Under the pieces are notes generated by a model, which ran no database searches, was not told where the DNA came from, and saw nothing but the letters and a program-made list of their open reading frames with translations. From the NCBI GenBank assembly GCA_965215015.1, contig OZ244042.1:2880001-2944000 (forward strand): DNA of 64,000 bases, in the 5' to 3' direction. Below, piece after piece: positions 27,938 through 38,866 of the stretch. Numbering within the stretch: position 1 is the stretch's first letter; every line of letters begins with the position of its first letter. A program made the position numbers and the translations under genes. The DNA is from Candidatus Poribacteria bacterium (GTDB lineage: Bacteria > Poribacteria > WGA-4E > PCPOR2b).

Positions 27938-29524
27938 ATGATGGAAGACAGAGATTTAATGACAATTCCTGAAGCCAGCAAATGGGCAACGGATTATCTT
28001 AAAAAAAACGTAACCGTTTCCAATATCTCCTATCTAATTCAGTATGGAAGAATCCGAAAATATGATAACAATGGTTCCACACGGGTTTCAAAACAGGACT
28101 TGCTTAAATATTATCATTCATATCTAGGAACACGAGAAGTCGACTGGAAGGCGCAACTAGGCGAAGACATCAATTGGGGGTTGTCATTTGATTATCTGAA
28201 AGAAGCTGATACAACGAAACATGTCCATAGGCTCCATCCATATAAAGGCAAATTCATCCCCCAACTGGTTGAATACTTCTTAGACAATCACACAGATGAT
28301 TTCAAAAAAGATGTGTGTTTCAAACAAGGTGATATTATCCTCGATCCGTTTTGTGGTAGCGGCACAACACTGGTGCAAGCTAACGAACTTGGAATGCGCG
28401 CTATCGGTATTGACATTTCCGCATTTAATACGCTCATCAGCAACATTAAAATAGAAAAACATAATCTTGTTGATGTACAGAATGAAATTCACAACATCAC
28501 AAACGGTCTTAAACGATTTATCAGCGAATCCAATATCGCTCAATTTGAAGCCCAACTCACCGCGGAACTTAACGAGTTTAATCACGAATATTTCCCCTCC
28601 CCTGATTTCAAATACCAAGTTAGGCAGGGACTGATTAATCAAGAAAAATACGGGAAAGAAAAAGAGGAGCAATTCTCACTCAGATATTTTCAACTCATTA
28701 ACCGATATGGAGTCAAATTAGGGCAAAGACAATCAGAGAATTTCCTCGATATGTGGTATTTATTGCCTGTAAGGGAAGAGATCGACTTTGTCTTTGAGCG
28801 CGTTAAACACATCCAAAACCGTGAAACACAACGGGTAGTCCAGATCATTTTGAGTCGAACGATTCGCACTTGCCGAGCAACAATGCATGCAGATTTGGGC
28901 ACCTTAAAAGAACCTGTAACAGCGGCTTACTACTGTGCTAAACACGGTAAAATGTGCAAGCCGTTGTTTTCAATATTAAGTTGGTGGGAGCGATACAGTC
29001 AAGATACAATTCAACGCCTTGTTCAGTTTGGTAAATTGAAAACTGGTACGTTTCAAACCTGTCTAACCGGAAATTCCCGGACAATTGATATTATTGAAGC
29101 ACTAAAGGCAGATAACCCAGGTTTTGCCCAATTCGTGAGGGAACAGAAGATTAAAGGGGTTTTCTCTAGCCCACCGTATGTTGGGCTTATCAACTATCAC
29201 GAACAACACGCCTACGCCTATGATTTATTTGAATTTGATCGAAAGGATGAACTAGAGATTGGGCCGCTCTCTAAGGGTAAAGGAAAAGAAGCCAGAGAAC
29301 AATATATCAAAGGTATTTCAGAAGTGTTGAGGAATTGCACGAAATTCTTAGCCCGAGATTATGATGTTTTTCTGGTGGCAAATGATAAGTTCAATATGTA
29401 TCCAACGATTGCGGAGTGTTCGGGGATGCGAATCGCTAATCAATATAAACGCCCCGTTCTCAACAGGACAGAAAAGGACAAAGGCGCGTACTCCGAAAGT
29501 ATTTTCCATCTGAAATCAAAATAG
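27938..29524 (+). CDS. N4-cytosine DNA methyltransferase with N-terminal HTH (M.MjaII-like)
   Basis: HPYKGKFIPQLV, DPFCGSGTT (motif I), SPPY (motif IV); AT-richer than neighbours; adjacent TdeIII-family REase remnant. Confidence 0.85.
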   Translation: MMEDRDLMTIPEASKWATDYLKKNVTVSNISYLIQYGRIRKYDNNGSTRVSKQDLLKYYHSYLGTREVDWKAQLGEDINWGLSFDYLKEADTTKHVHRLHPYKGKFIPQLVEYFLDNHTDDFKKDVCFKQGDIILDPFCGSGTTLVQANELGMRAIGIDISAFNTLISNIKIEKHNLVDVQNEIHNITNGLKRFISESNIAQFEAQLTAELNEFNHEYFPSPDFKYQVRQGLINQEKYGKEKEEQFSLRYFQLINRYGVKLGQRQSENFLDMWYLLPVREEIDFVFERVKHIQNRETQRVVQIILSRTIRTCRATMHADLGTLKEPVTAAYYCAKHGKMCKPLFSILSWWERYSQDTIQRLVQFGKLKTGTFQTCLTGNSRTIDIIEALKADNPGFAQFVREQKIKGVFSSPPYVGLINYHEQHAYAYDLFEFDRKDELEIGPLSKGKGKEAREQYIKGISEVLRNCTKFLARDYDVFLVANDKFNMYPTIAECSGMRIANQYKRPVLNRTEKDKGAYSESIFHLKSK

Positions 29525-29543
29525 CGTACAGGTTGAGACAAAT

Positions 29544-29762
29544 ATGCCGCTATCCAAGTAACAAGCAACATCGCCGGAACCCTATAAGCGTTGGACAGCA
29601 AAAGGGATGTTGGATTTAGGACAAGAGTTAAGGGTTGCCGATGAATTTTGGGATTTCTTAAGTGGAGATAGCGCGTATCAGGATTTATTAGATTGTTTTG
29701 AAAGAGTTGGTATTGAATTATGGACTGAGATTAATCACTATTTTGAGAAATTTAGAAATTGA
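29544..29762 (+). pseudogene. Internally deleted TdeIII/MjaII-family type II restriction endonuclease
   Basis: One frame reads MPLSK*QATS fused to PEPYKRWTAKGMLDLGQELRVADEFWDFLSGDSAYQDLLDCFERVGIEL...; recognised from memory as the RE_TdeIII C-terminus. Confidence 0.75.
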
Positions 29763-29786
29763 TTCAAAACTGAAACAGGAGCGACA

Positions 29787-30923
29787 ATGGAAAGATTTTT
29801 ACCGATCGCAGACTCAACGCTTTACCCCGTCTACGAGAAAGTTCAGGCGGATGAACGCCTCTCTTTTGAAGATGGGGTAAGGCTCTATGAAAGCCCGGAT
29901 ATCAACGGCGTTGGCTATCTCGCCAACATCGTGCGAGAACGACAGAACGGGAATCTTGCCTACTATAACCTGAACCAACATATCGACTACTCGAATGTGT
30001 GTATCTTACATGCACGTTGTCACTTTTGTGCGTTTGCACGGAAAAACATACAGACCGCCGGGGCATGGGAGATGAGCATTGATGAATTTCTGGATAAGGC
30101 GATGTATTCCATTGACCACGGCTGCACAGAAATTCACAGCGTCGGCGGCCTGCATCCGAAGCTACCGTTTGAATACTATCTCGACATGCTTCGCGGATTG
30201 AAGCAGCGGATGCCACAGGTTCATCTCAAGTTTTTCACGGCTGTGGAAATTCATCATTTTTCACGGATATTCAAGATGTCAATTGAGGAGGTCCTGATTG
30301 CATTGCGCGAGGCAGGGCTAGATTCGCTGCCCGGCGGCGGGGCGGAGATTTTCGCGGAAGAGACACGAGAAAAAATCTGTCCCGGCAAATTGAGCGCGGA
30401 AGGGTGGCTTGAGGTACATGACATTGCTCACCGGCTGGATATCCCAACGAATGCGACGATGCTCTATGGACATCTCGAAACGACTGAAGATCGGGTGGAT
30501 CACCTGATTCGCCTTCGCGAGCAGCAGGACAAATCGGGCGGTTTTGTCACCTTTATTCCGCTTGCCTTCCATCCCGAAAACACGCGAATGGATTATCTAC
30601 CGAGCACATCCGGTTTGACCGATTTGCAAAATGTAGCGGTGTCGCGTCTATTGCTTGACAATTTCCCACACATCAAAGTGTATTGGATTATGACCGGACT
30701 GAAGACCGCCCAAATCGCGCTGAGTTTTGGGGCAGATGACATTGACGGCACCGTAACGGAAGAGAAGATTACACACATGGCAGGTGCCGACACCCCAGAG
30801 GCAATCTCAGCAGAAGAGATTACCCAGCTAATTGAGGAGGCCGGTCGCATATCCGTTGAGCGCGACACGCTCTATAACGAAATTATCCGAGAAGGAAATC
30901 AATGGCACAGAAAAGCCGCGTGA
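29787..30923 (+). CDS. mqnE: Aminofutalosine synthase (radical SAM, futalosine menaquinone pathway)
   Basis: EIHSVGGLHP, TAVEI, LPGGGAEIF, ATMLYGH, GADDIDGTV.EEKI.HMAG; adjacent mqnA. Confidence 0.9.
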   Translation: MERFLPIADSTLYPVYEKVQADERLSFEDGVRLYESPDINGVGYLANIVRERQNGNLAYYNLNQHIDYSNVCILHARCHFCAFARKNIQTAGAWEMSIDEFLDKAMYSIDHGCTEIHSVGGLHPKLPFEYYLDMLRGLKQRMPQVHLKFFTAVEIHHFSRIFKMSIEEVLIALREAGLDSLPGGGAEIFAEETREKICPGKLSAEGWLEVHDIAHRLDIPTNATMLYGHLETTEDRVDHLIRLREQQDKSGGFVTFIPLAFHPENTRMDYLPSTSGLTDLQNVAVSRLLLDNFPHIKVYWIMTGLKTAQIALSFGADDIDGTVTEEKITHMAGADTPEAISAEEITQLIEEAGRISVERDTLYNEIIREGNQWHRKAA

Positions 30924-31714
30924 AAGTTGGGGCGGTTTCGTTTCTCAACACGAAACCACTGATTCACTCCCTTGTGGAAGACCCTCAATTCCCCGGCAGC
31001 GAGGCAATAGAACTTAGCTTAGCAGTACCAAGTCGTTTAGCAACGGAATTAAAGGACGGAGCTCTTGACGTTGGATTGATTCCAATCATTGAATACTTCC
31101 GAACGGACAACGAATATAGAATTATACCGGACATTTCAATCTGCTCGCGGGGCCCCGTTTTGAGCATCCAACTGTTCAGTCATGTGCCTATTCCTGCTAT
31201 CCGTCACGTTGCGCTTGACACCAGTTCACGCTCATCTCGTGCGCTTGTACAGATTGTGCTCGCCGAGAAATATAACCTACATCCCGAATTTTATTCCTGT
31301 CCACCCACGATCAATCCGCAAGCGGCAGATACAGACGCAGTGCTATTAATCGGGGATGCGGCATTGCGAAGACTCGGTGCAACGGATTATACCGTAGATC
31401 TTGGTGAGGAATGGACTACATTGACAGGGCTACCGTTTGTTTATGCTTGCTGGGTAGCACGGGGAGAGGTTGAGTTAGGACAAGCTCCCCAAACGCTTTT
31501 GAAGGCAAAAGAATGTGGCATTAATAAAGTGCCTGAGATTGCCCGAATCGAGTCCCAAAGACTCGGTTTTCCCGAAACGCTCTGTCGAGATTATCTGACC
31601 AAGCATATTTTCTACGAACTTAGTGATTCAGAAATTGTTGGATTGATGAGGTTCTATGAGCTTGCGGTGAAATATGATCTTGCCCAACCCGATGTGAAAC
31701 TGAGGTTTGTATGA
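30902..31714 (+). CDS. mqnA: Chorismate dehydratase
   Basis: VSFLNTKPL, SSRSS, LLIGDAAL, DLGEEW...TGLPFVYA. Confidence 0.92.
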   Translation: MAQKSRVKVGAVSFLNTKPLIHSLVEDPQFPGSEAIELSLAVPSRLATELKDGALDVGLIPIIEYFRTDNEYRIIPDISICSRGPVLSIQLFSHVPIPAIRHVALDTSSRSSRALVQIVLAEKYNLHPEFYSCPPTINPQAADTDAVLLIGDAALRRLGATDYTVDLGEEWTTLTGLPFVYACWVARGEVELGQAPQTLLKAKECGINKVPEIARIESQRLGFPETLCRDYLTKHIFYELSDSEIVGLMRFYELAVKYDLAQPDVKLRFV

Positions 31715-31724
31715 ATTTCTGACG

Positions 31725-31826
31725 ATGTGGGCACCTAACTGGAGGTTGGTCTCCGAACGGCTTTTCGAGACAGCAGAACCGAATTGAATGAAGAAGATTC
31801 AACTATTGAAGGAATTGGAGTTGTGA
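31725..31826 (+). pseudogene. 102-bp gene-tail remnant, diverged direct repeat of 37079-37180
   Basis: MWAPNWRLVSERLFETAEPN*MKKIQLLKELEL* vs MWLCNTGWLISDRLFETAEPGRMKQIQPQRELG*. Confidence 0.6.
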
Positions 31827-31895
31827 AGAGTAACCCCCCGCCTACAGCTCGCATCAATACAAACATATAGGATTCATTCTAACTTCTCAGTGCTA

Positions 31896-32834
31896 TTATG
31901 AGTTTGACTTGATATCTCCCCACGGCTTTGGAGCCACCCCCTGCACCGAGACCGGCAGCTGGCTATTCCATTCGCTGGGGGAGGTATCATTCGCCGGATG
32001 ATTGGTCAACTGGGTTAGTTGACCGTCTGAGAGACGGAACCTGTAGATATCCCATTTCTCACCTTCCTTCCTCAAAGCAACGAGAATTGACTTCCCATCG
32101 GCGCCCCATGCGGCGGCTGTCAAATCCATTTTCGGCAGCGGCACCGGCTCACGCTTGACCACCTCACGCCTTATCGGTGCGAGTGTAGCGATAATCATGG
32201 TTGTGTCTGTCACCAAAGCCCCGATGGCTTCAGCATACAGAATCTGTTTCCCATCGGGCGACCACCCGTCCACAAACATCACGGCACCGGGTCTCGGTTG
32301 GCTGACCTGCCATCGCTGGGTGCCGTCGGCGTTCATCACATAGACCTGGCGTCCCTGGTCTATGACCCCCTCAAAGGTGATGTGCTTCCCATCAGGAGAC
32401 CACCGAGGACGTGAGGCAAACGCCAAACGAGTCAGTTGCTTCACGTTGCTGCCATCGGTGTCCATCACATAAATGTTCAGGGCACCATCCCTGTCGCTTG
32501 CAAAGGCAATCTGCTTCCCATCGGGCGACCAGTTAGGGGAGGACTCAAACGCTGGATGACGGCTCAGGTTGCGCGGGTTGCTGCCATCGGCGTCCATCAC
32601 ATAAATCTCCTGATTCTCATCCCGCAGACTCGCAAAGACAATCTCGCGACCGGTGGGGGACCAGGAGCATTGAAAATCCCCTGCCTCGTTGTGTGTCAGT
32701 CGGGTTTGACCTTTTCCCGTTGAACTCATCACGTAGATTTCAGAATTTCCATCCCGAGAAGCTTTAAACACGATTTTGCTGTGGATGGTGCTCGTTATCA
32801 ACCAAAGGCTGATAACGAGAGCTGGGAATCGCAT
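31896..32834 (-). CDS. Secreted TolB-like (PD40) beta-propeller, array copy 4
   Basis: Signal peptide, repeated P.WSPDG..I.F.S.RDG..EIYVM, C-terminal PVS.QG..PKPWGDIK. Confidence 0.9.
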   Translation of the reverse strand: MRFPALVISLWLITSTIHSKIVFKASRDGNSEIYVMSSTGKGQTRLTHNEAGDFQCSWSPTGREIVFASLRDENQEIYVMDADGSNPRNLSRHPAFESSPNWSPDGKQIAFASDRDGALNIYVMDTDGSNVKQLTRLAFASRPRWSPDGKHITFEGVIDQGRQVYVMNADGTQRWQVSQPRPGAVMFVDGWSPDGKQILYAEAIGALVTDTTMIIATLAPIRREVVKREPVPLPKMDLTAAAWGADGKSILVALRKEGEKWDIYRFRLSDGQLTQLTNHPANDTSPSEWNSQLPVSVQGVAPKPWGDIKSNS

Positions 32835-32836
32835 AA

Positions 32837-33019
32837 CTAATCCTCTTTTGTAAATCGGACGTTTACAGCATTTACCTGTCCATCCCCCAGATGGTCATTT
32901 CCGTCAAAGAGTGAAACCCGTGTATACGCTGTAATATCATATTGTACGCCCTCATCTAAATTAGCCACACTGACTCCCCGCCAAGCTGAAAATTTTTCTG
33001 TTCGCATCAATACGAACAT
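32837..33019 (-). other. Orphan C-terminal cassette of the 176-aa gene (allele LDEGVQY), 60-aa ORF
   Basis: Last ~48 codons match 36310-36840; stop abuts the propeller ATG. Confidence 0.85.
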
Positions 33020-33048
33020 ATAGGATTCATTCTAACTTCTCAGTGTTA

Positions 33049-33987
33049 TTATGAGTTTGACTTGATATCTCCCCACGGCTTTGGAGCCACCCCCTGTGTC
33101 GAGACCGGCAGCTGGCTATTCCATTCGTTGGGGGAGCCGTCACCCGCCGGATGATTGGTCAACTGTGTCAGTTGACCGTCTGAGAGGCGGAACCTGTAGA
33201 TATCCCATTTCTCACCCTCCTTCCTCAAAGCAACGAGAATTGACTTCCCATCGGCACCCCATGCGGCGGTTGTCGAATCCATCTTCGGCAGCGGCACCGG
33301 TTCATGCTTGACCACCTCACGCCTTATCGGTGCGAGTGTAGCGATAATCACGGTTGTGTCTGTCACCAGGCCGCCGACGGATGCCTTATACAGAATCTGT
33401 GTTCCATCGGGCGACCATCCCGCCGTAAACATCAAGGTGCCGGGTCTGGGTTGGCTGACCTGCCATCGCTGGGTGCCGTCGGCGTTCATCACATAGACCT
33501 GGCGTCCCTGGTCTATGACCCCCTCAAAGGTGATTTGCTTCCCGTCAGGAGACCACCGAGGACGTGAAGCAAACGCCAAACGAGTCAGTTGCTTCACGTT
33601 GCTGCCATCGGTGTCCATCACATAAATGTTCAGGGCTCCATCCCTATCGCTTGAAAAGGCAATCTGTTTCCCATCAGGCGCCCAGTCGGGGGAAGACTCA
33701 AATGCTGGATGACGGCTCAGGTTGTGCGGGTTGCTGCCATCGGCGTCCATCACATAAATCTCCTGATTGTCATCCCGTAGACTGACAAAGACAATCTCTC
33801 GTCCGTTGGGAGACCAATCGGGGATAAAATCCGCGGCCTCGTTGTGCGTCAACCGTGTTTGAGCTCTTCCCGTTGAACTCATCACGTAGATTTCATTGTT
33901 TCCATCCCGAGAAGACCCGAACACGATTTTGCTGTGGACTTGATTCGTGACCAGCAAAAAGCTGGTCACGAGAATTGAGAGGCGCAT
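33049..33987 (-). CDS. Secreted TolB-like (PD40) beta-propeller, array copy 3 (distinct signal peptide)
   Basis: As copy 4; N-terminus MRLSILVTSFLLVTNQ differs from the other three. Confidence 0.9.
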   Translation of the reverse strand: MRLSILVTSFLLVTNQVHSKIVFGSSRDGNNEIYVMSSTGRAQTRLTHNEAADFIPDWSPNGREIVFVSLRDDNQEIYVMDADGSNPHNLSRHPAFESSPDWAPDGKQIAFSSDRDGALNIYVMDTDGSNVKQLTRLAFASRPRWSPDGKQITFEGVIDQGRQVYVMNADGTQRWQVSQPRPGTLMFTAGWSPDGTQILYKASVGGLVTDTTVIIATLAPIRREVVKHEPVPLPKMDSTTAAWGADGKSILVALRKEGEKWDIYRFRLSDGQLTQLTNHPAGDGSPNEWNSQLPVSTQGVAPKPWGDIKSNS

Positions 33988-33989
33988 CG

Positions 33990-34199
33990 CTATTCTCTCC
34001 TCTTTGTAAATCGGACGTTTACAGCATTCACCTGTCCATCCCCCAGATGGTCGTTTCCATCAAACAGCGAAATGGTCGTTTCCATCAAAGAGCGAAACCC
34101 GTGTATATGCTGTGATATCATAATCCGTGCCATTCTGTAAATTAGCAACACTGACTCCTTGCCAGCCTGAAAATTTTTCTGTTCGATCAATACAAACAT
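33990..34199 (-). pseudogene. Orphan C-terminal cassette (allele LQNGTDY) frameshifted by a 25-bp tandem duplication
   Basis: GWQGVSVANLQNGTDYDITAYTRVSLFDGNDH; duplication 34047-34071/34072-34096. Confidence 0.85.
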
Positions 34200-34215
34200 A
34201 TAGGATTCAGTGATA

Positions 34216-35154
34216 TTATGAGTTTGATTTGATATCCCCCCACGGCTTTGGAGCCACTCCCTGTGTCGAGACCGGCAGCTGGCTATTCCATTCGCTGGGG
34301 GAGCCGTCACCCGCCGGATGATTGGTCAACTGGGTCAGTTGACCGTCTGAGAGACGGAACCTGTAGATATCCCATTTCTCACCTTCCTTCCTCAAAGCAA
34401 CGAGAATTGACTTCCCATCGGCACCCCATGCGGCGGATGTCAAATCCATCTTCGGCAGCGGCACCGGCTCACGCTTGACCACCTCACGCCTTATCGGTGC
34501 GAGTGTGGCGATAATCATGGTTGTGTCTGTCACCAAAGCCCCGATGGCTTCAGCATACAGAATCTGTGTTCCATCGGGCGACCACCCGTCCACAAACATC
34601 ACGGCACCGGGTCTCGGTTGGCTGACCTGCCATCGCCGGGTGCCGTCGGCGTTCATCACATAGACCTGGCGTCCCTGGTCTATGACCCCCTCAAAGGTGA
34701 TACGCTTCCCGTCAGGAGACCACTGGGGGCGTGAAGCAAACGCCAAACGAGTCAGTTGTTTCACGTTGCTGCCATCGGTGTCCATCACATAAATGTTCAG
34801 GGCTCCATCCCTATCGCTTGAAAAGGCAATCTGCTTCCCATCAGGCGACCAATAGGGGGCAGCATCAAACGCCGGATGACGGCTCAGGTTGCGCGGGTTG
34901 CTGCCATCGGCGTCCATCACATAAATCTCATCGTTCCCGTCCCGGAGACTGACAAAGACAATCTCTCGTCCGTTGGGAGACCAATCGGGGGTAAAATCCG
35001 CGGCCTCGTTGTGCGTTAACCGTGTTTGACCTTTTCCCGTTGAACTCATCACGTAGATTTCAGAATTTCCATCCCGAGAGGCTTTAAACACGATTTTGCT
35101 GTGGACGGTGCTCGTTATCAACCAAAGGCTGATAACGAGAGCTGGGAATCGCAT
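34216..35154 (-). CDS. Secreted TolB-like (PD40) beta-propeller, array copy 2
   Basis: As above. Confidence 0.9.
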   Translation of the reverse strand: MRFPALVISLWLITSTVHSKIVFKASRDGNSEIYVMSSTGKGQTRLTHNEAADFTPDWSPNGREIVFVSLRDGNDEIYVMDADGSNPRNLSRHPAFDAAPYWSPDGKQIAFSSDRDGALNIYVMDTDGSNVKQLTRLAFASRPQWSPDGKRITFEGVIDQGRQVYVMNADGTRRWQVSQPRPGAVMFVDGWSPDGTQILYAEAIGALVTDTTMIIATLAPIRREVVKREPVPLPKMDLTSAAWGADGKSILVALRKEGEKWDIYRFRLSDGQLTQLTNHPAGDGSPSEWNSQLPVSTQGVAPKPWGDIKSNS

Positions 35155-35156
35155 AA

Positions 35157-35339
35157 CTAATCCTCTTTTGTAAATCGGACGTTTACAGCATTCACCTGTC
35201 CATCGCCCAGATGGTCATTTCCATCAAAGAGCGAAACCCGTGTATACGCTGTGATATCATAATCCGTGTCATCCCGTAAATTAGCAACACTGACTCCCTG
35301 CCAAGCTGAAAATTTTTCTGTTCGCATCAATACGAACAT
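35157..35339 (-). other. Orphan C-terminal cassette (allele LRDDTDY), 60-aa ORF
   Basis: Homologous to the 3' end of 36310-36840 except for a 5-codon patch. Confidence 0.85.
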
Positions 35340-35368
35340 ATAGGATTCATTCTAACTTCTCAGTGTTA

Positions 35369-36307
35369 TTATGAGTTTGACTTGATATCTCCCCACGGCT
35401 TTGGAGCCACTCCCTGTGTCGAGACCGGCAGCTGGCTATTCCATTCGCTGGGGAAGGTATCATTCGCCGGATGATCGGTCAACTGGGTTAGTTGACCGTC
35501 TGAGAGACGGAACCTGTAGATATCCCATTTCTCACCCGCCTTCCTCAAAGCAACAAGAATTGACTTCCCATCGGCACCCCATGCGACGGTTGTCGAATCC
35601 ATCTTCGGCAGCGGCACCGGTTCATGCTTGACCACCTCACGCCTTATCGGTGCGAGTGTAGCGATAATCACGGTTGAGTTTGTCACCAGGCCGCCAACGG
35701 ATGCCTTATACAGAATCTGTGTTCCATCGGGCGACCATCCCGACGTAAACATCAAGGTGCCGGGTCTGGGTTGGCTGACCTGCCATCGCTGGGTGCCGTC
35801 GGCGTTCATCACATAGACCTGGCGTCCCTGGTCTGTGACCCCCTCAAAGGTGATACGCTTCCCATCAGGAGACCACTGGGGACGTGAAGCAAACGCCAAA
35901 CGAGTCAGTTGCTTCACGTTGCTGCCATCGGCGTCCATCACATAAATGTTCAGGGCTCCATCCCTATCGCTTGAAAAGGCAATCTGTTTCCCATCAGGCG
36001 ACCAATAGGGGGCAGCATCAAACGCCGGATGACGGCTCAGGTTGCGCGGGTTGCTGCCATCGGCGTCCATCACATAAATCTCATCGTTCCCGTCCCGCAG
36101 ACTGACAAAGACAATCTCTTGTCCGTTGGGAGACCAATCGGGAGTAAAATCCCCTGCCTCATTGTGTGTCAGTCGTGTTTGACCTCTTCCCGTTGAACTC
36201 ATCACGTAGATTTCAGAATTTCCATCCCGAGAAGCTTTAAACACGATTTTGCTGTGGACGGTGCTCGTTATCAACCAAAGGCTGATAACGAGAGCTGGGA
36301 ATCGCAT
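35369..36307 (-). CDS. Secreted TolB-like (PD40) beta-propeller, array copy 1
   Basis: As above; directly coupled to the 176-aa gene. Confidence 0.9.
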   Translation of the reverse strand: MRFPALVISLWLITSTVHSKIVFKASRDGNSEIYVMSSTGRGQTRLTHNEAGDFTPDWSPNGQEIVFVSLRDGNDEIYVMDADGSNPRNLSRHPAFDAAPYWSPDGKQIAFSSDRDGALNIYVMDADGSNVKQLTRLAFASRPQWSPDGKRITFEGVTDQGRQVYVMNADGTQRWQVSQPRPGTLMFTSGWSPDGTQILYKASVGGLVTNSTVIIATLAPIRREVVKHEPVPLPKMDSTTVAWGADGKSILVALRKAGEKWDIYRFRLSDGQLTQLTDHPANDTFPSEWNSQLPVSTQGVAPKPWGDIKSNS

Positions 36308-36309
36308 AA

Positions 36310-36840
36310 CTAATCCTCTTTTGTAAATCGGACGTTTACAGCATTCACCTGTCCATCCCCCAGATGGTCATTTCCGTCAAAGAGTGAAACCCGTGTATAC
36401 GCTGTAATATCATATTGTACGCCCTCATCTAAATTAGCCACACTGACCCCCTGCCAGCCCCAATGGTCGCTGTATCCATTTGCAGGCACATCTGGTCCGA
36501 ATTCTTCGATGATATCCTGCTTAGGGCTGCCATCTGTGTTGTAAGTATTCGTGCCGTCGGTATTGACGATAGTATGATTAAACTCATACTTCACATCGAT
36601 TGCAAAGGGGCCATTTTCGATCAGATAGTGATGGAAACTCTCCGTGCGTTGGGTTGAGCCGCCGATATACCTGAGCTGGCTCGCTGTGGCACTCCAACTG
36701 ATACCGTCAATGGTGCCGCCGTTCGGTGATCCGGGGATGTTTCTAACAATCAACACACCTGCCATCCCCAAGACCAATATGCCGAGACCTATAAACACTT
36801 TAGGGTATTTCTTTGCCAATTTCATGAATTGTTGGTTCAT
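36310..36840 (-). CDS. Membrane-anchored beta-rich (Fn3/Ig-like) hypothetical protein, head gene of the array
   Basis: N-terminal basic + TM segment KKYPKVFIGLGILVLGMAGVLIVR; NLDEGVQYDITAY resembles an Fn3 tyrosine corner. Confidence 0.75.
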   Translation of the reverse strand: MNQQFMKLAKKYPKVFIGLGILVLGMAGVLIVRNIPGSPNGGTIDGISWSATASQLRYIGGSTQRTESFHHYLIENGPFAIDVKYEFNHTIVNTDGTNTYNTDGSPKQDIIEEFGPDVPANGYSDHWGWQGVSVANLDEGVQYDITAYTRVSLFDGNDHLGDGQVNAVNVRFTKED

Positions 36841-37012
36841 AAGTGCCAGATGGTAAGCTCAAACCTTCTATGCGGCAAAAGGTTTAAGCCCGATAGATAT
36901 ACCCAAACCGTAACTGTTTTACGTTGGGGTATATGACAGCGTACATCAGACATATGCTTCTAGTCAAGCAAAAAAATAGGGTTCTCGTTTTAGTATGTGA
37001 AGATTTTTTCTA

Positions 37013-37040
37013 TTGACAACATTTGTCCATTGGGTATAAT
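37013..37040 (+). promoter_or_regulatory. Consensus sigma70 promoter
   Basis: TTGACA-16-TATAAT. Confidence 0.6.
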
Positions 37041-37046
37041 GAACGA

Positions 37047-37180
37047 ACTGGCAGCACCCGGACCTGACTTGGGCAAAGATGTGGCTGTGCAATACCGGAT
37101 GGTTGATCTCCGACCGGCTTTTCGAGACAGCAGAGCCGGGGCGGATGAAGCAGATTCAACCGCAGAGGGAATTGGGGTAA
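37047..37180 (+). pseudogene. Gene-tail remnant (possibly PhyH C-terminus), homologous to 31725-31826
   Basis: NWQHPDLTWAKMWLCNTGWLISDRLFETAEPGRMKQIQ; shared nt core CGGCTTTTCGAGACAGCAGA. Confidence 0.55.
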
Positions 37181-37228
37181 ATTACTGCACACAAAAATTT
37201 AATTGAATCTATACCTGTTTATTAGAAC

Positions 37229-37456
37229 CTAATTGGAGAGGCTACCAAGTTGTTAGGGGTTAATCCTCAAACATTACGGCGTTGGGTGGAGTGTATATGA
37301 CCTCAAGCGTGGGTTCAACAGCGTCAAAGATGAGCTCTTCCCATGATGGTGCCGCAACTTTCACAGAATGCGTCAAAGAATGTTATTCATGACCTTGCTG
37401 ATGTTATTAAACGCTGGAGAAAAGGACAGAACCAGTTTCCCCGTTGCAAAAAATGA
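37229..37456 (+). mobile_element. Collapsed IS607-family remnant (tnpA HTH fragment joined to tnpB N-terminal fragment)
   Basis: LIGEATKLLGVNPQTLRRW (IS607 TnpA HTH) followed by SVYDLKRGFNSVKDELFP* and QLSQNASKNVIHDLADVIKRWRKGQNQFPRCKK (TnpB-like). Confidence 0.7.
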
Positions 37457-37588
37457 TTGTAGTAAGAGGATACCAGACAAAAGCTGAGGGGCACTGCAAA
37501 AGGACTTCGCCTCTGGGAAAGGTTAGCCGCTGGCAGGCAGTCGGAATACCACTGACAAAAAACTTCGCAAATCGAAGGTATAAACAGC

Positions 37589-38866
37589 ATGATCGAAACG
37601 ACACTCTTTGATTTAACCTACGAAAGTCGGAAGCGTCCCCTGTTGAAACAGGTATTGGAGAGATTACGTCCAATCTACTCTACGGACGAACTGAAGGTCT
37701 TACGCATTGACAGTGAAAGTCGAGATGTTCTCTCTCTCCGTTCTGGGCGAGGATTTGTCAATCGAGATATTCTCGAAACGGTGCTCGGCAACCTATTGGA
37801 ATGTGTAGCCCCCGGTTCCCACAACGCCCCGCGTCCAGAAAATCATAAGGGCGAACTGTCGGAAGCAATCGAAGAGGTCGCGGACCAACTGTACGCGGTG
37901 ATTGCCCAATCCTTCTTGGCAGTCACCGACGAAAGCGAGTTGGAAAGCCGTGCATTGGACACAACGTTTGCGCTGCTCTGGGAGTTGCCTCGACTGAAAC
38001 AGCGCGCCCTATGGAACCGTTTTGCCTCGCTGAAAGATCCGGCGGTGTGGGATGCCTATCTGCTCCACAGTGGAGTTTCCCGTGAAAAACTTGTCGAATT
38101 GGACATCAGGGCGCAGGTAGATGAAGCCATTCTAAAACGGGAGTTCCAACCCTATCGAAATCTCTTGGACACTCTTGATTTGGCTTTCGCTTTTGACTAC
38201 CAGATGCAGTTGGTTGTCAGTACGTACCCCGGTTGGCGAGTGCTCTTCTACCACGATGTTGGCTATCTCTTAACTCGATCCGGTCCCATTAAGGGCACCA
38301 TCAATCTCTACCGAACCCCTGTACCGCTTTTACCCCGCGCGATTTCTGAACTTGGGGGCCGTTACTACCAAGCAGATCTCCACCCCGAAACACAGATTGG
38401 TGATGCTAATTTCTTGGAGCATCCCCATCGCGGCTTCACCACCGGACAAACCGGGGTTATTGGCTCTGGCTGCGTCATCTATCCGTGTACGCTTGGTGGC
38501 TTGAGTGTGAGGGTCAAACAGCGTCACCCGATTCTTGGCGACTTCGTGCAGATTGGCACGGACGCAAGTCTGCTGGGGCCGGTACGAATCGGGGACCACT
38601 CTACCGTCGGCACAAATACAGAGATCTACGGTTTTGTTGAGATAGATACCAGCTGCCATATCGGTTCTTCAGTGGTCATCGGGACCATCCGGAGCGAATC
38701 CATCAAACCGGGCGTGATTCGTCTTGGCAAGAACGTTTCGGTGGGCGACGGGACGATTATCGAAAACACCTTGGCGATAGATTTGATTATTCCGGATCAG
38801 TCAGAGATTCCCGCACGCAGCCATGTCTCTAACGATGGTTTTGGACATCCCAGATATGTCGCATAA
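37589..38866 (+). CDS. Divergent serine O-acetyltransferase-like (LbH) protein with long N-terminal domain
   Basis: YPGW, LPRAISE, DLHPETQIG...LEH, TLGG...QRHPILGD, extended hexapeptide repeats. Confidence 0.7.
   Translation: MIETTLFDLTYESRKRPLLKQVLERLRPIYSTDELKVLRIDSESRDVLSLRSGRGFVNRDILETVLGNLLECVAPGSHNAPRPENHKGELSEAIEEVADQLYAVIAQSFLAVTDESELESRALDTTFALLWELPRLKQRALWNRFASLKDPAVWDAYLLHSGVSREKLVELDIRAQVDEAILKREFQPYRNLLDTLDLAFAFDYQMQLVVSTYPGWRVLFYHDVGYLLTRSGPIKGTINLYRTPVPLLPRAISELGGRYYQADLHPETQIGDANFLEHPHRGFTTGQTGVIGSGCVIYPCTLGGLSVRVKQRHPILGDFVQIGTDASLLGPVRIGDHSTVGTNTEIYGFVEIDTSCHIGSSVVIGTIRSESIKPGVIRLGKNVSVGDGTIIENTLAIDLIIPDQSEIPARSHVSNDGFGHPRYVA

Follow-up and report, generated by a model that had tools for sequence, protein, structure and literature searches.

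Several bacterial multigene families diversify through tandem duplication and gene conversion, among them opa and pilS of Neisseria, bab/hop of Helicobacter and msp2 of Anaplasma. In TolB, Pal and colicin peptides are bound at the mouth of the propeller channel. Here we describe a locus that recalls both, in a window of 64,000 nucleotides (nt) from the genome of a Candidatus Poribacteria bacterium (assembly GCA_965215015.1, contig OZ244042.1, positions 2,880,001 to 2,944,000 of the forward strand). It is an array of four PD40 propeller genes, P1 to P4, placed head to tail on the minus strand behind a small gene, S1. The array resembles the gene-converting families in its short-tract recombination between paralogs, its mosaic genes and its conserved scaffold with variable segments. 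It differs from antigenic-variation cassette systems in having no expression-site and silent-copy layout, all four copies being complete, co-oriented and apparently co-transcribed, and its scaffold is a propeller, not an outer-membrane or pilus protein, and is not known to be linked to immune evasion. The locus is probably a genuine, lineage-specific tandem array under concerted evolution, in which short-tract exchange has reshuffled old islands of divergence and whose products differ mainly on their innermost strands.

The eukaryotic-like repeat proteins of sponge symbionts (ankyrin, TPR, LRR, WD40, NHL and PD40 proteins) offer another comparison, since the array propellers are PD40/TolB-like. 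In two papers, PD40 (PMC9531527) and TolB-like and WD40 domains (PMC5735121) are listed among eukaryotic-like or enriched domains in sponge microbiomes, and the latter also cites that WD40 repeats linked to Tol-system domains are expressed. The text of PMC13747020 does not mention PD40. These sponge-symbiont papers report domain counts. No description of S plus P cassettes, tandem PD40 arrays or mosaic PD40 paralogs was found in the literature outside subscription journals and supplements.

An open reading frame (ORF) listing confirmed the four genes of the original prediction, a note made from the sequence alone, each being intact and 312 amino acids (aa) long. P1 matched PF07676 over three stretches with 117.9 bits (E = 1.3e-34), where the Pfam gathering threshold is 20.9. 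Its AlphaFold model, built on a 69-row alignment, had a predicted local distance difference test (pLDDT) value of 88.4 and a predicted template modelling score of 0.85, and displayed six four-stranded blades. Residues 20-288 are all propeller, with the C-terminal strand 283-288 completing blade 1 (velcro closure); it is flanked by disordered segments at 1-17, which is a hydrophobic helix, and at 296-312. The protein begins with M-R, continues with a hydrophobic stretch and then reads V-H-S followed by K, an N-terminus that looks like a Sec signal peptide with no lipobox.

Structural comparison placed TolB at the top (2w8b_A, E = 5.7e-19, template modelling (TM) score 0.77), and the TolB model TIGR02800 was also the best NCBIfam hit of the array propeller; both proteins are six-bladed propellers of PD40 repeats. 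However, the array propeller scored 310.7 bits against the TIGR02800 cut-off of 343.15, aligned only at model positions 247-404, has no N-terminal alpha/beta domain, and is a multi-copy protein encoded outside any tolQRA-tolB-pal cluster. Identity with TolB was therefore rejected on the score, the missing domain and the lack of tol or pal neighbours. A search of the whole genome with TIGR02800 found no locus over the cut-off, which the controls from E. coli and Caulobacter exceeded. The best TIGR02800 hits in this genome were P4 and P2 of the array.

Alignment of the four copies (939 nt) revealed 140 polymorphic sites. Eighty-two of these were singletons (33 in P3, 28 in P4, 13 in P1 and 8 in P2), six were multi-allelic and 52 were parsimony-informative. 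Fourteen of the informative sites support the split P1P2/P3P4 (A), 26 support P1P3/P2P4 (B) and 12 support P1P4/P2P3 (C). In gene order the series is BCCCCCAAAAAAAAAABAACA, followed by 24 B and by CCCCCCA: split C runs over nt 135-155 and 819-851, split A over nt 216-303 and 429-452, and split B over nt 540-771. Private blocks lie at nt 1-92 in P3 and nt 163-204 in P4. The original prediction had assigned its block B (RDGNDE/FDAAPYW versus RD[D/E]NQE/FESSP[D/N]W) to the split P1P2/P3P4, its block C (GTLMFT/YKASVGGLV/KHEP/MDSTT versus GAVMFVD/YAEAIGALV/KREP/MDLT) to P1P3/P2P4, and a C-terminal block (PANDT versus PAGDG) to P1P4/P2P3. The peptides were present as quoted and divided the copies in just these ways, and all four combinations of the block B and block C alleles were found.

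The clustering of these signals was far from random. Among 1326 pairs of informative sites, 844 were incompatible. Neighbour incompatibility, in a test of the pairwise homoplasy index (PHI) type, was 0.278, whereas permutation gave a mean of 0.637 (k = 5; no value as low in 20,000 permutations, p ≤ 5e-5). The pattern switched only 9 times along the gene, where permuted series switched 32.4 times on average and never fewer than 18 times in 100,000 permutations. Since 23 of the 52 informative sites are synonymous, convergent selection on amino acids cannot yield the pattern. At the sequence level, recombination or gene conversion between the copies is strongly supported. The original prediction had argued that no single duplication tree could hold the four copies and had proposed the nucleotide alignment and PHI test as a check; both the argument and the check were borne out.

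Further combinations of the same alleles were found in other assemblies, where three proteins from other contigs share a 90% cluster with three of the four array proteins. P0124, from a 19-kb contig, carries P4 alleles over aa 1-75 (except at position 17) and P3 alleles from aa 97, as expected of a hybrid produced by unequal exchange between P3 and P4. Two further proteins, P0002 from that contig too and P0125 from a 70-kb contig, resemble P4 but have residues of the P2 or P3 type at 8 and 6 positions, respectively. The S ortholog on the 70-kb contig has an allele that in this genome is restricted to the S remnants of units 2 and 3. A sequencing run from another study, representing a related strain, covered 15 of 30 bins at 95-99% and joined a P4-like gene to an upstream allele of the P2/P3 type (loose end at 32941).

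The islands are much more diverged than the sequence around them. Synonymous divergence (pS) between alleles was 0.39 in the N-terminal block, 0.44 at aa 52-68, 0.30 at aa 72-101 and 0.31 at aa 180-213, with 0.09 and 0.18 in two smaller islands, whereas the scaffold between islands showed only 0.05-0.10. Comparison of P1-P4 with the one ortholog that each of two congeneric genomes has gave a pS of 0.38-0.44. As the two ranges are equal, the copies, or at least the island alleles, would be about as old as the species split; we infer that the islands either date from that split or were imported from outside this genome. A recently homogenised scaffold with islands that stay old fits concerted evolution with islands that escape it and are shuffled. 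Short-tract recombination between the copies has homogenised most of the gene; the divergent islands that it left number at least six, have two or three alleles each, and have been reshuffled in such a way that no single tree fits them.

In one congener the syntenic locus (L039) comprises purH, the hexapeptide transferase gene, S, one P, a 265-aa ORF and mqnA, and the second congener (L021) has one S and one P. The single-copy locus in both indicates that the array is lineage-specific. A search for donors within the genome, by blastn for each repeat unit and by nearest-paralog scans for each island, gave identities to other paralogs of at most 0.82 for every island, which is background level. 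Ectopic conversion from another array therefore finds no support. Among the orthologs of the two congeners, identity per block was 0.62-0.95, with no near-identical import. The P3 5′ block is 0.74 identical to the ortholog of the closer congener (0.88-0.89 for the other copies), and the P4 private block 0.71-0.75 identical to the congeneric orthologs (0.82-0.87 for the other copies). Either an unsampled lineage or accelerated change may account for these two blocks.

To place the variation on the fold, residues were classed by strand order from the DSSP string of the model, with A for the x-P-x-W-S-P strand, followed by B, C and D. In propellers generally, the D-A and B-C loops share one face, termed the top. 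The innermost A strands (x-P-x-W) were found to be the hotspot, with 18 of 40 residues variable compared with 31 of 229 elsewhere (odds ratio 5.2, p = 1.6e-5); next came the B strands in their top halves (9/20). Neither the D-A loops (3/39) nor the B-C loops (6/32) were enriched. The clustering in B-C loops that the original prediction had proposed did not hold, and the changes that it had put just before each P-x-WSP strand are better placed within the innermost A strand itself. Positions variable here also varied in seven other groups of close paralogs (32/50 against 95/242, p = 0.001; 18/50 against 29/242 when only positions variable in at least two groups are counted, p = 1e-4), position 98 doing so in six of the seven. 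The islands would thus fall preferentially on the strands lining the central channel, the region used for ligand binding in TolB, the nearest solved relative. As TolB binds its ligands at the channel mouth, different A strands plausibly mean different ligands.

Among the structural classes, A strands had the highest nonsynonymous divergence (pN). Their pN/pS ratio was 0.68 here and 0.25-0.39 in five other groups, and exceeded 1 only in two two-copy arrays (3.57 and 1.67, from tiny counts). The block at aa 278-290 had a ratio of 1.49; six pairs that are not independent contributed to it, with 25 nonsynonymous and 4 synonymous differences in sum.

Several points weigh against reading the locus as a true array with shuffled islands and differing channel surfaces. 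The phase of the islands is given by the assembly alone, since public unitigs (127-403 nt; Logan contigs of four runs) are too short to link one island to another, and recombinants elsewhere are known only as proteins, from the 19-kb and 70-kb contigs. The five-copy sister array at 4.94 Mb contained 347 incompatible site pairs out of 861 with no significant clustering (p = 0.13). Both 'top' and 'channel-lining' derive from strand order and not from measured exposure. The top-face bias claimed by the original prediction was seen across groups, pN being higher in the top than in the bottom half in all eight within-array groups, but within this array the contrast was not significant (31/141 variable residues against 18/128; odds ratio 1.7, p = 0.11). 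Pairwise ratios of nonsynonymous to synonymous substitution (dN/dS) for the mature protein were 0.20-0.41 in all six pairs, and the ratio was below 1 in nearly every structural class. Adaptive diversification by positive selection is not demonstrated by these figures, which are pairwise and class-average ratios and hence blunt.

The lack of phasing by unitigs also speaks for the mosaics being artefacts of assembly or polishing, chimaeras of reads from different copies or strains, as do the origin of the genome and its same-genus relatives as metagenome-assembled genomes (MAGs) and a contamination estimate of 3.9%. Yet the genome is one closed 5.94-Mb contig, which makes a chimaeric assembly unlikely, and all four ORFs are intact. 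Logan contigs from three samples of one study reproduced the local sequences at 99% or better, and in the unitigs of these samples every visible local haplotype was recovered at 99-100%, with allele b of island C linked once to P4-private and once to P2-private sites; this agreement is not independent support, as the assembly may itself stem from that study. The longest identical stretch between any two copies is at most 111 nt, so that even short paired reads could phase them, and mis-polishing would homogenise the copies and not create islands with coherent synonymous divergence. We therefore regard an artefact as very improbable. A diversity-generating retroelement, or another form of targeted hypermutation, might also concentrate variation in short blocks of a ligand-binding scaffold. 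However, the mismatches showed no adenine bias (the template base was A in 0.21-0.32 of them over all 12 ordered pairs), and the blocks are common to several copies as discrete alleles. No reverse transcriptase ORF was found among the neighbours examined, the whole genome not having been searched for one. Such a mechanism was rejected on the base spectrum, its chance being negligible.

The remaining question is whether a real mosaic has any function. Under neutral concerted evolution the islands would be the fastest-evolving, least constrained segments of the gene, and piecemeal gene conversion would leave them in place by default, diverged islands resisting heteroduplex formation. The low dN/dS of all six pairs agrees with this, as do the A-strand ratios below 1 here and in the five other groups and the rise of the islands at synonymous and nonsynonymous sites alike. 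In addition, positions variable here also vary among orthologs in other genomes, as weakly constrained sites would. On the other hand, the islands move between copies as units, as the four combinations of blocks B and C show, so divergence does not block exchange around them; the variation is concentrated on a single structural element beyond chance, and independent arrays vary at the same positions; and two small arrays have A-strand ratios above 1. The propeller family of this genome is, moreover, the largest among the 19 congeners searched (31 matches against 17 in the next and 1-9 in the rest, at most 74 candidates being scored per genome). We give this neutral account slightly less than an even chance. 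Alternatively, selection would keep several alleles per island while recombination deals new combinations of them, widening the range of ligands bound. The retention side by side of alleles as old as the species split is in favour of such a selected repertoire, together with the recurrence of the channel-lining hotspot across seven other array groups, the further allele combinations in other assemblies, the expansion of the family, and the enrichment of PD40 and TolB-like domains in sponge microbiomes reported in PMC9531527 and PMC5735121. But no class or pair has a robust dN/dS above 1, the top-face contrast is not significant in this array, and the islands are raised at synonymous sites too; the repertoire-like diversification suggested by the original prediction is accordingly not shown, and we hold it possible but somewhat doubtful. 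The furthest-reaching proposal is that S and P form a combinatorial recognition system of a sponge-associated bacterium, in which S would be a membrane-anchored adaptor presenting interchangeable propeller heads, and channel-lining allelic cassettes under balancing selection would be reshuffled within and between strains to give strain-specific ligand or host-molecule specificities. This is speculative and on the whole unlikely.

Turning to the genuine, concertedly evolving array as the preferred reading, its construction can be followed from the repeat units, which measure 1153, 1167 and 1153 bp (features are listed in Table 1).

Table 1. Features of the S1-P1-P2-P3-P4 cassette and its borders, in window coordinates
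Feature	Position	Strand	Description
P1 propeller	35369..36307	-	Secreted six-bladed PD40 (putative signal peptide), 312 aa; island alleles a-a-a-a-a-a
P2 propeller paralog	34216..35154	-	Island C common with P4; aa 45-52 and C-terminal islands common with P3
P3 propeller paralog	33049..33987	-	Private, highly divergent 5′ block, nt 1-92, with 25 differences from P1
P4 propeller paralog	31896..32834	-	Private divergent block, nt 163-204, being the A strand of blade 2
S1, first gene of the cassette	36310..36840	-	176 aa; N-terminal membrane helix and all-beta domain (predicted)
Repeat-unit junction 1	35155..35368	-	Open 57-codon S1 remnant ORF, ending 2 nt before the P2 start
Repeat-unit junction 2	33988..34215	-	S1 remnant whose frame is disrupted by small deletions and a 25-nt tandem duplication (34047-34097)
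Repeat-unit junction 3	32835..33048	-	Open 57-codon S1 remnant, 96% identical to the S1 C-terminus
78-nt direct repeat, one arm	31744..31821	.	81% identical to the other arm
78-nt direct repeat, other arm	37101..37178	.	The arms bracket the whole cassette of S1 and four P genes

Each junction consists of 46 nt of P 3′ flank, about 17 nt, and a copy of the last 48 codons of S1, and in all three the P 3′ flank is fused to S1 at about codon 128. This identical layout points to one founding duplication and to its later expansion to four copies by unequal homologous recombination. The open mini-ORFs of units 2 and 4 encode a new 8-residue N-terminus followed by the 49 C-terminal residues of S1. The S1 stop codon lies 2 nt ahead of the P1 start, and the last codons of S1 hold the GAGGA ribosome-binding site of P1, which gives a simple reason for the retention of the remnants. 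These mini-ORFs end 2 nt before the next propeller start, and translational coupling is one conceivable role for them.

Each of the four copies has its full reading frame, with start codon, ribosome-binding site and putative signal peptide. Between the copies, the coding strand showed no terminator-like site; transcription as one S1-P1-P2-P3-P4 unit is thus likely, and the five genes likely form one operon-like cassette, as judged from their arrangement. Such an operon would probably supply the periplasm or the cell surface with four propellers that have a scaffold in common and differ in their binding surfaces.

S1 had no match in Pfam or NCBIfam. Its AlphaFold model (pLDDT 83.9) contained a helix at 13-33 and strands over 40-173 forming a beta-sandwich, with weak structural matches to ApaG and arrestin-type sandwiches (TM 0.33-0.45). 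A profile of S found 119 cluster representatives at E ≤ 1e-3 among 1.84 billion, and S is thus a narrow, unnamed protein family. The family has a conserved AYTR motif close to the C-terminus. A predicted complex of S1 residues 33-176 with P1 residues 20-296 scored 0.10, with the mark at 0.32, and is neither support nor counter-evidence for an interaction; it is the conserved adjacency of the genes that suggests a partnership between S and P.

The array belongs to a wider family. Thirty-one full-length paralogs were found genome-wide, with 47-64% aa identity to P1 (87-100% within the array itself), in addition to more distant ones. Most are in tandem arrays, with 82-97% identity between members of one array and about 60% between members of different arrays. 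At 10 or more places the first propeller is preceded by an S-like gene of 166-183 aa that has a hydrophobic segment at its N-terminus. In a six-copy array at 0.9 Mb incompatibilities were clustered (p = 0.0014). In the three-copy array at 1.79 Mb (C1:1791156-1795782) the internal S remnants consist of the first 12 residues of S and about 64 C-terminal residues. Remnants of this deletion type indicate that duplication units cutting through S arose independently at least twice. A single-copy paralog at C1:5790220-5791194 has an in-frame TGA immediately behind its start codon and is a possible pseudogene.

At E ≤ 1e-60 the propeller family was present in all 18 congeneric genomes and in none of 12 genomes from other families of the order. 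An S homolog lies directly upstream of the first P in nine of the 18 congeneric loci (L021-L038); the other nine loci, each of 3.9 kb, begin inside arrays or have no visible S. Sixteen more distant loci from Poribacteria-titled MAGs contained 1-7 propeller genes (two or more in 13 of them) and no S hit. The arrays of relatives are far more diverged, with copies 48-79% identical.

The array is neighboured by MqnE, an MqnA-like ORF, a hexapeptide acyltransferase and PurH-like genes, with no tol or pal genes. An Rfam scan of 31000-38000 gave no match at E ≤ 0.1. The 78-nt direct repeat has only two copies genome-wide and could be a footprint of cassette arrival or of local rearrangement. A contig found in three runs links the flank of the upstream arm to letters matching the other arm. 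At 37013-37040 on the plus strand there is a perfect 12/12 sigma-70 consensus (TTGACA, 16 nt, TATAAT), which is directed away from S1 and faces the hexapeptide acyltransferase gene at 37589; toward S1 there are only weak 9/12 sites. A 528-aa DNA methyltransferase (N6_N4_Mtase, E = 5.5e-15) is encoded at 27938-29524, in the lowest-GC stretch near the array. The G + C fraction is 0.408 over 28001-30000 against about 0.50 around it, and this stretch may be a foreign insert.

PD40/TolB-like propellers have been counted as enriched in sponge microbiomes, with little known of their organisation or evolution. This locus offers a concrete architecture, in which one to several secreted propellers stand behind a small anchored partner gene, and a mode of evolution that appears to be concerted, with species-old islands shuffled on the channel-lining strands. 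If the islands do not set specificity, the locus would still be a clean bacterial example of patchy gene conversion. If they do, the four natural variants on one scaffold would be a ready-made experiment for finding ligands, and the array would bear on how symbionts may diversify recognition without dedicated hypermutation machinery.

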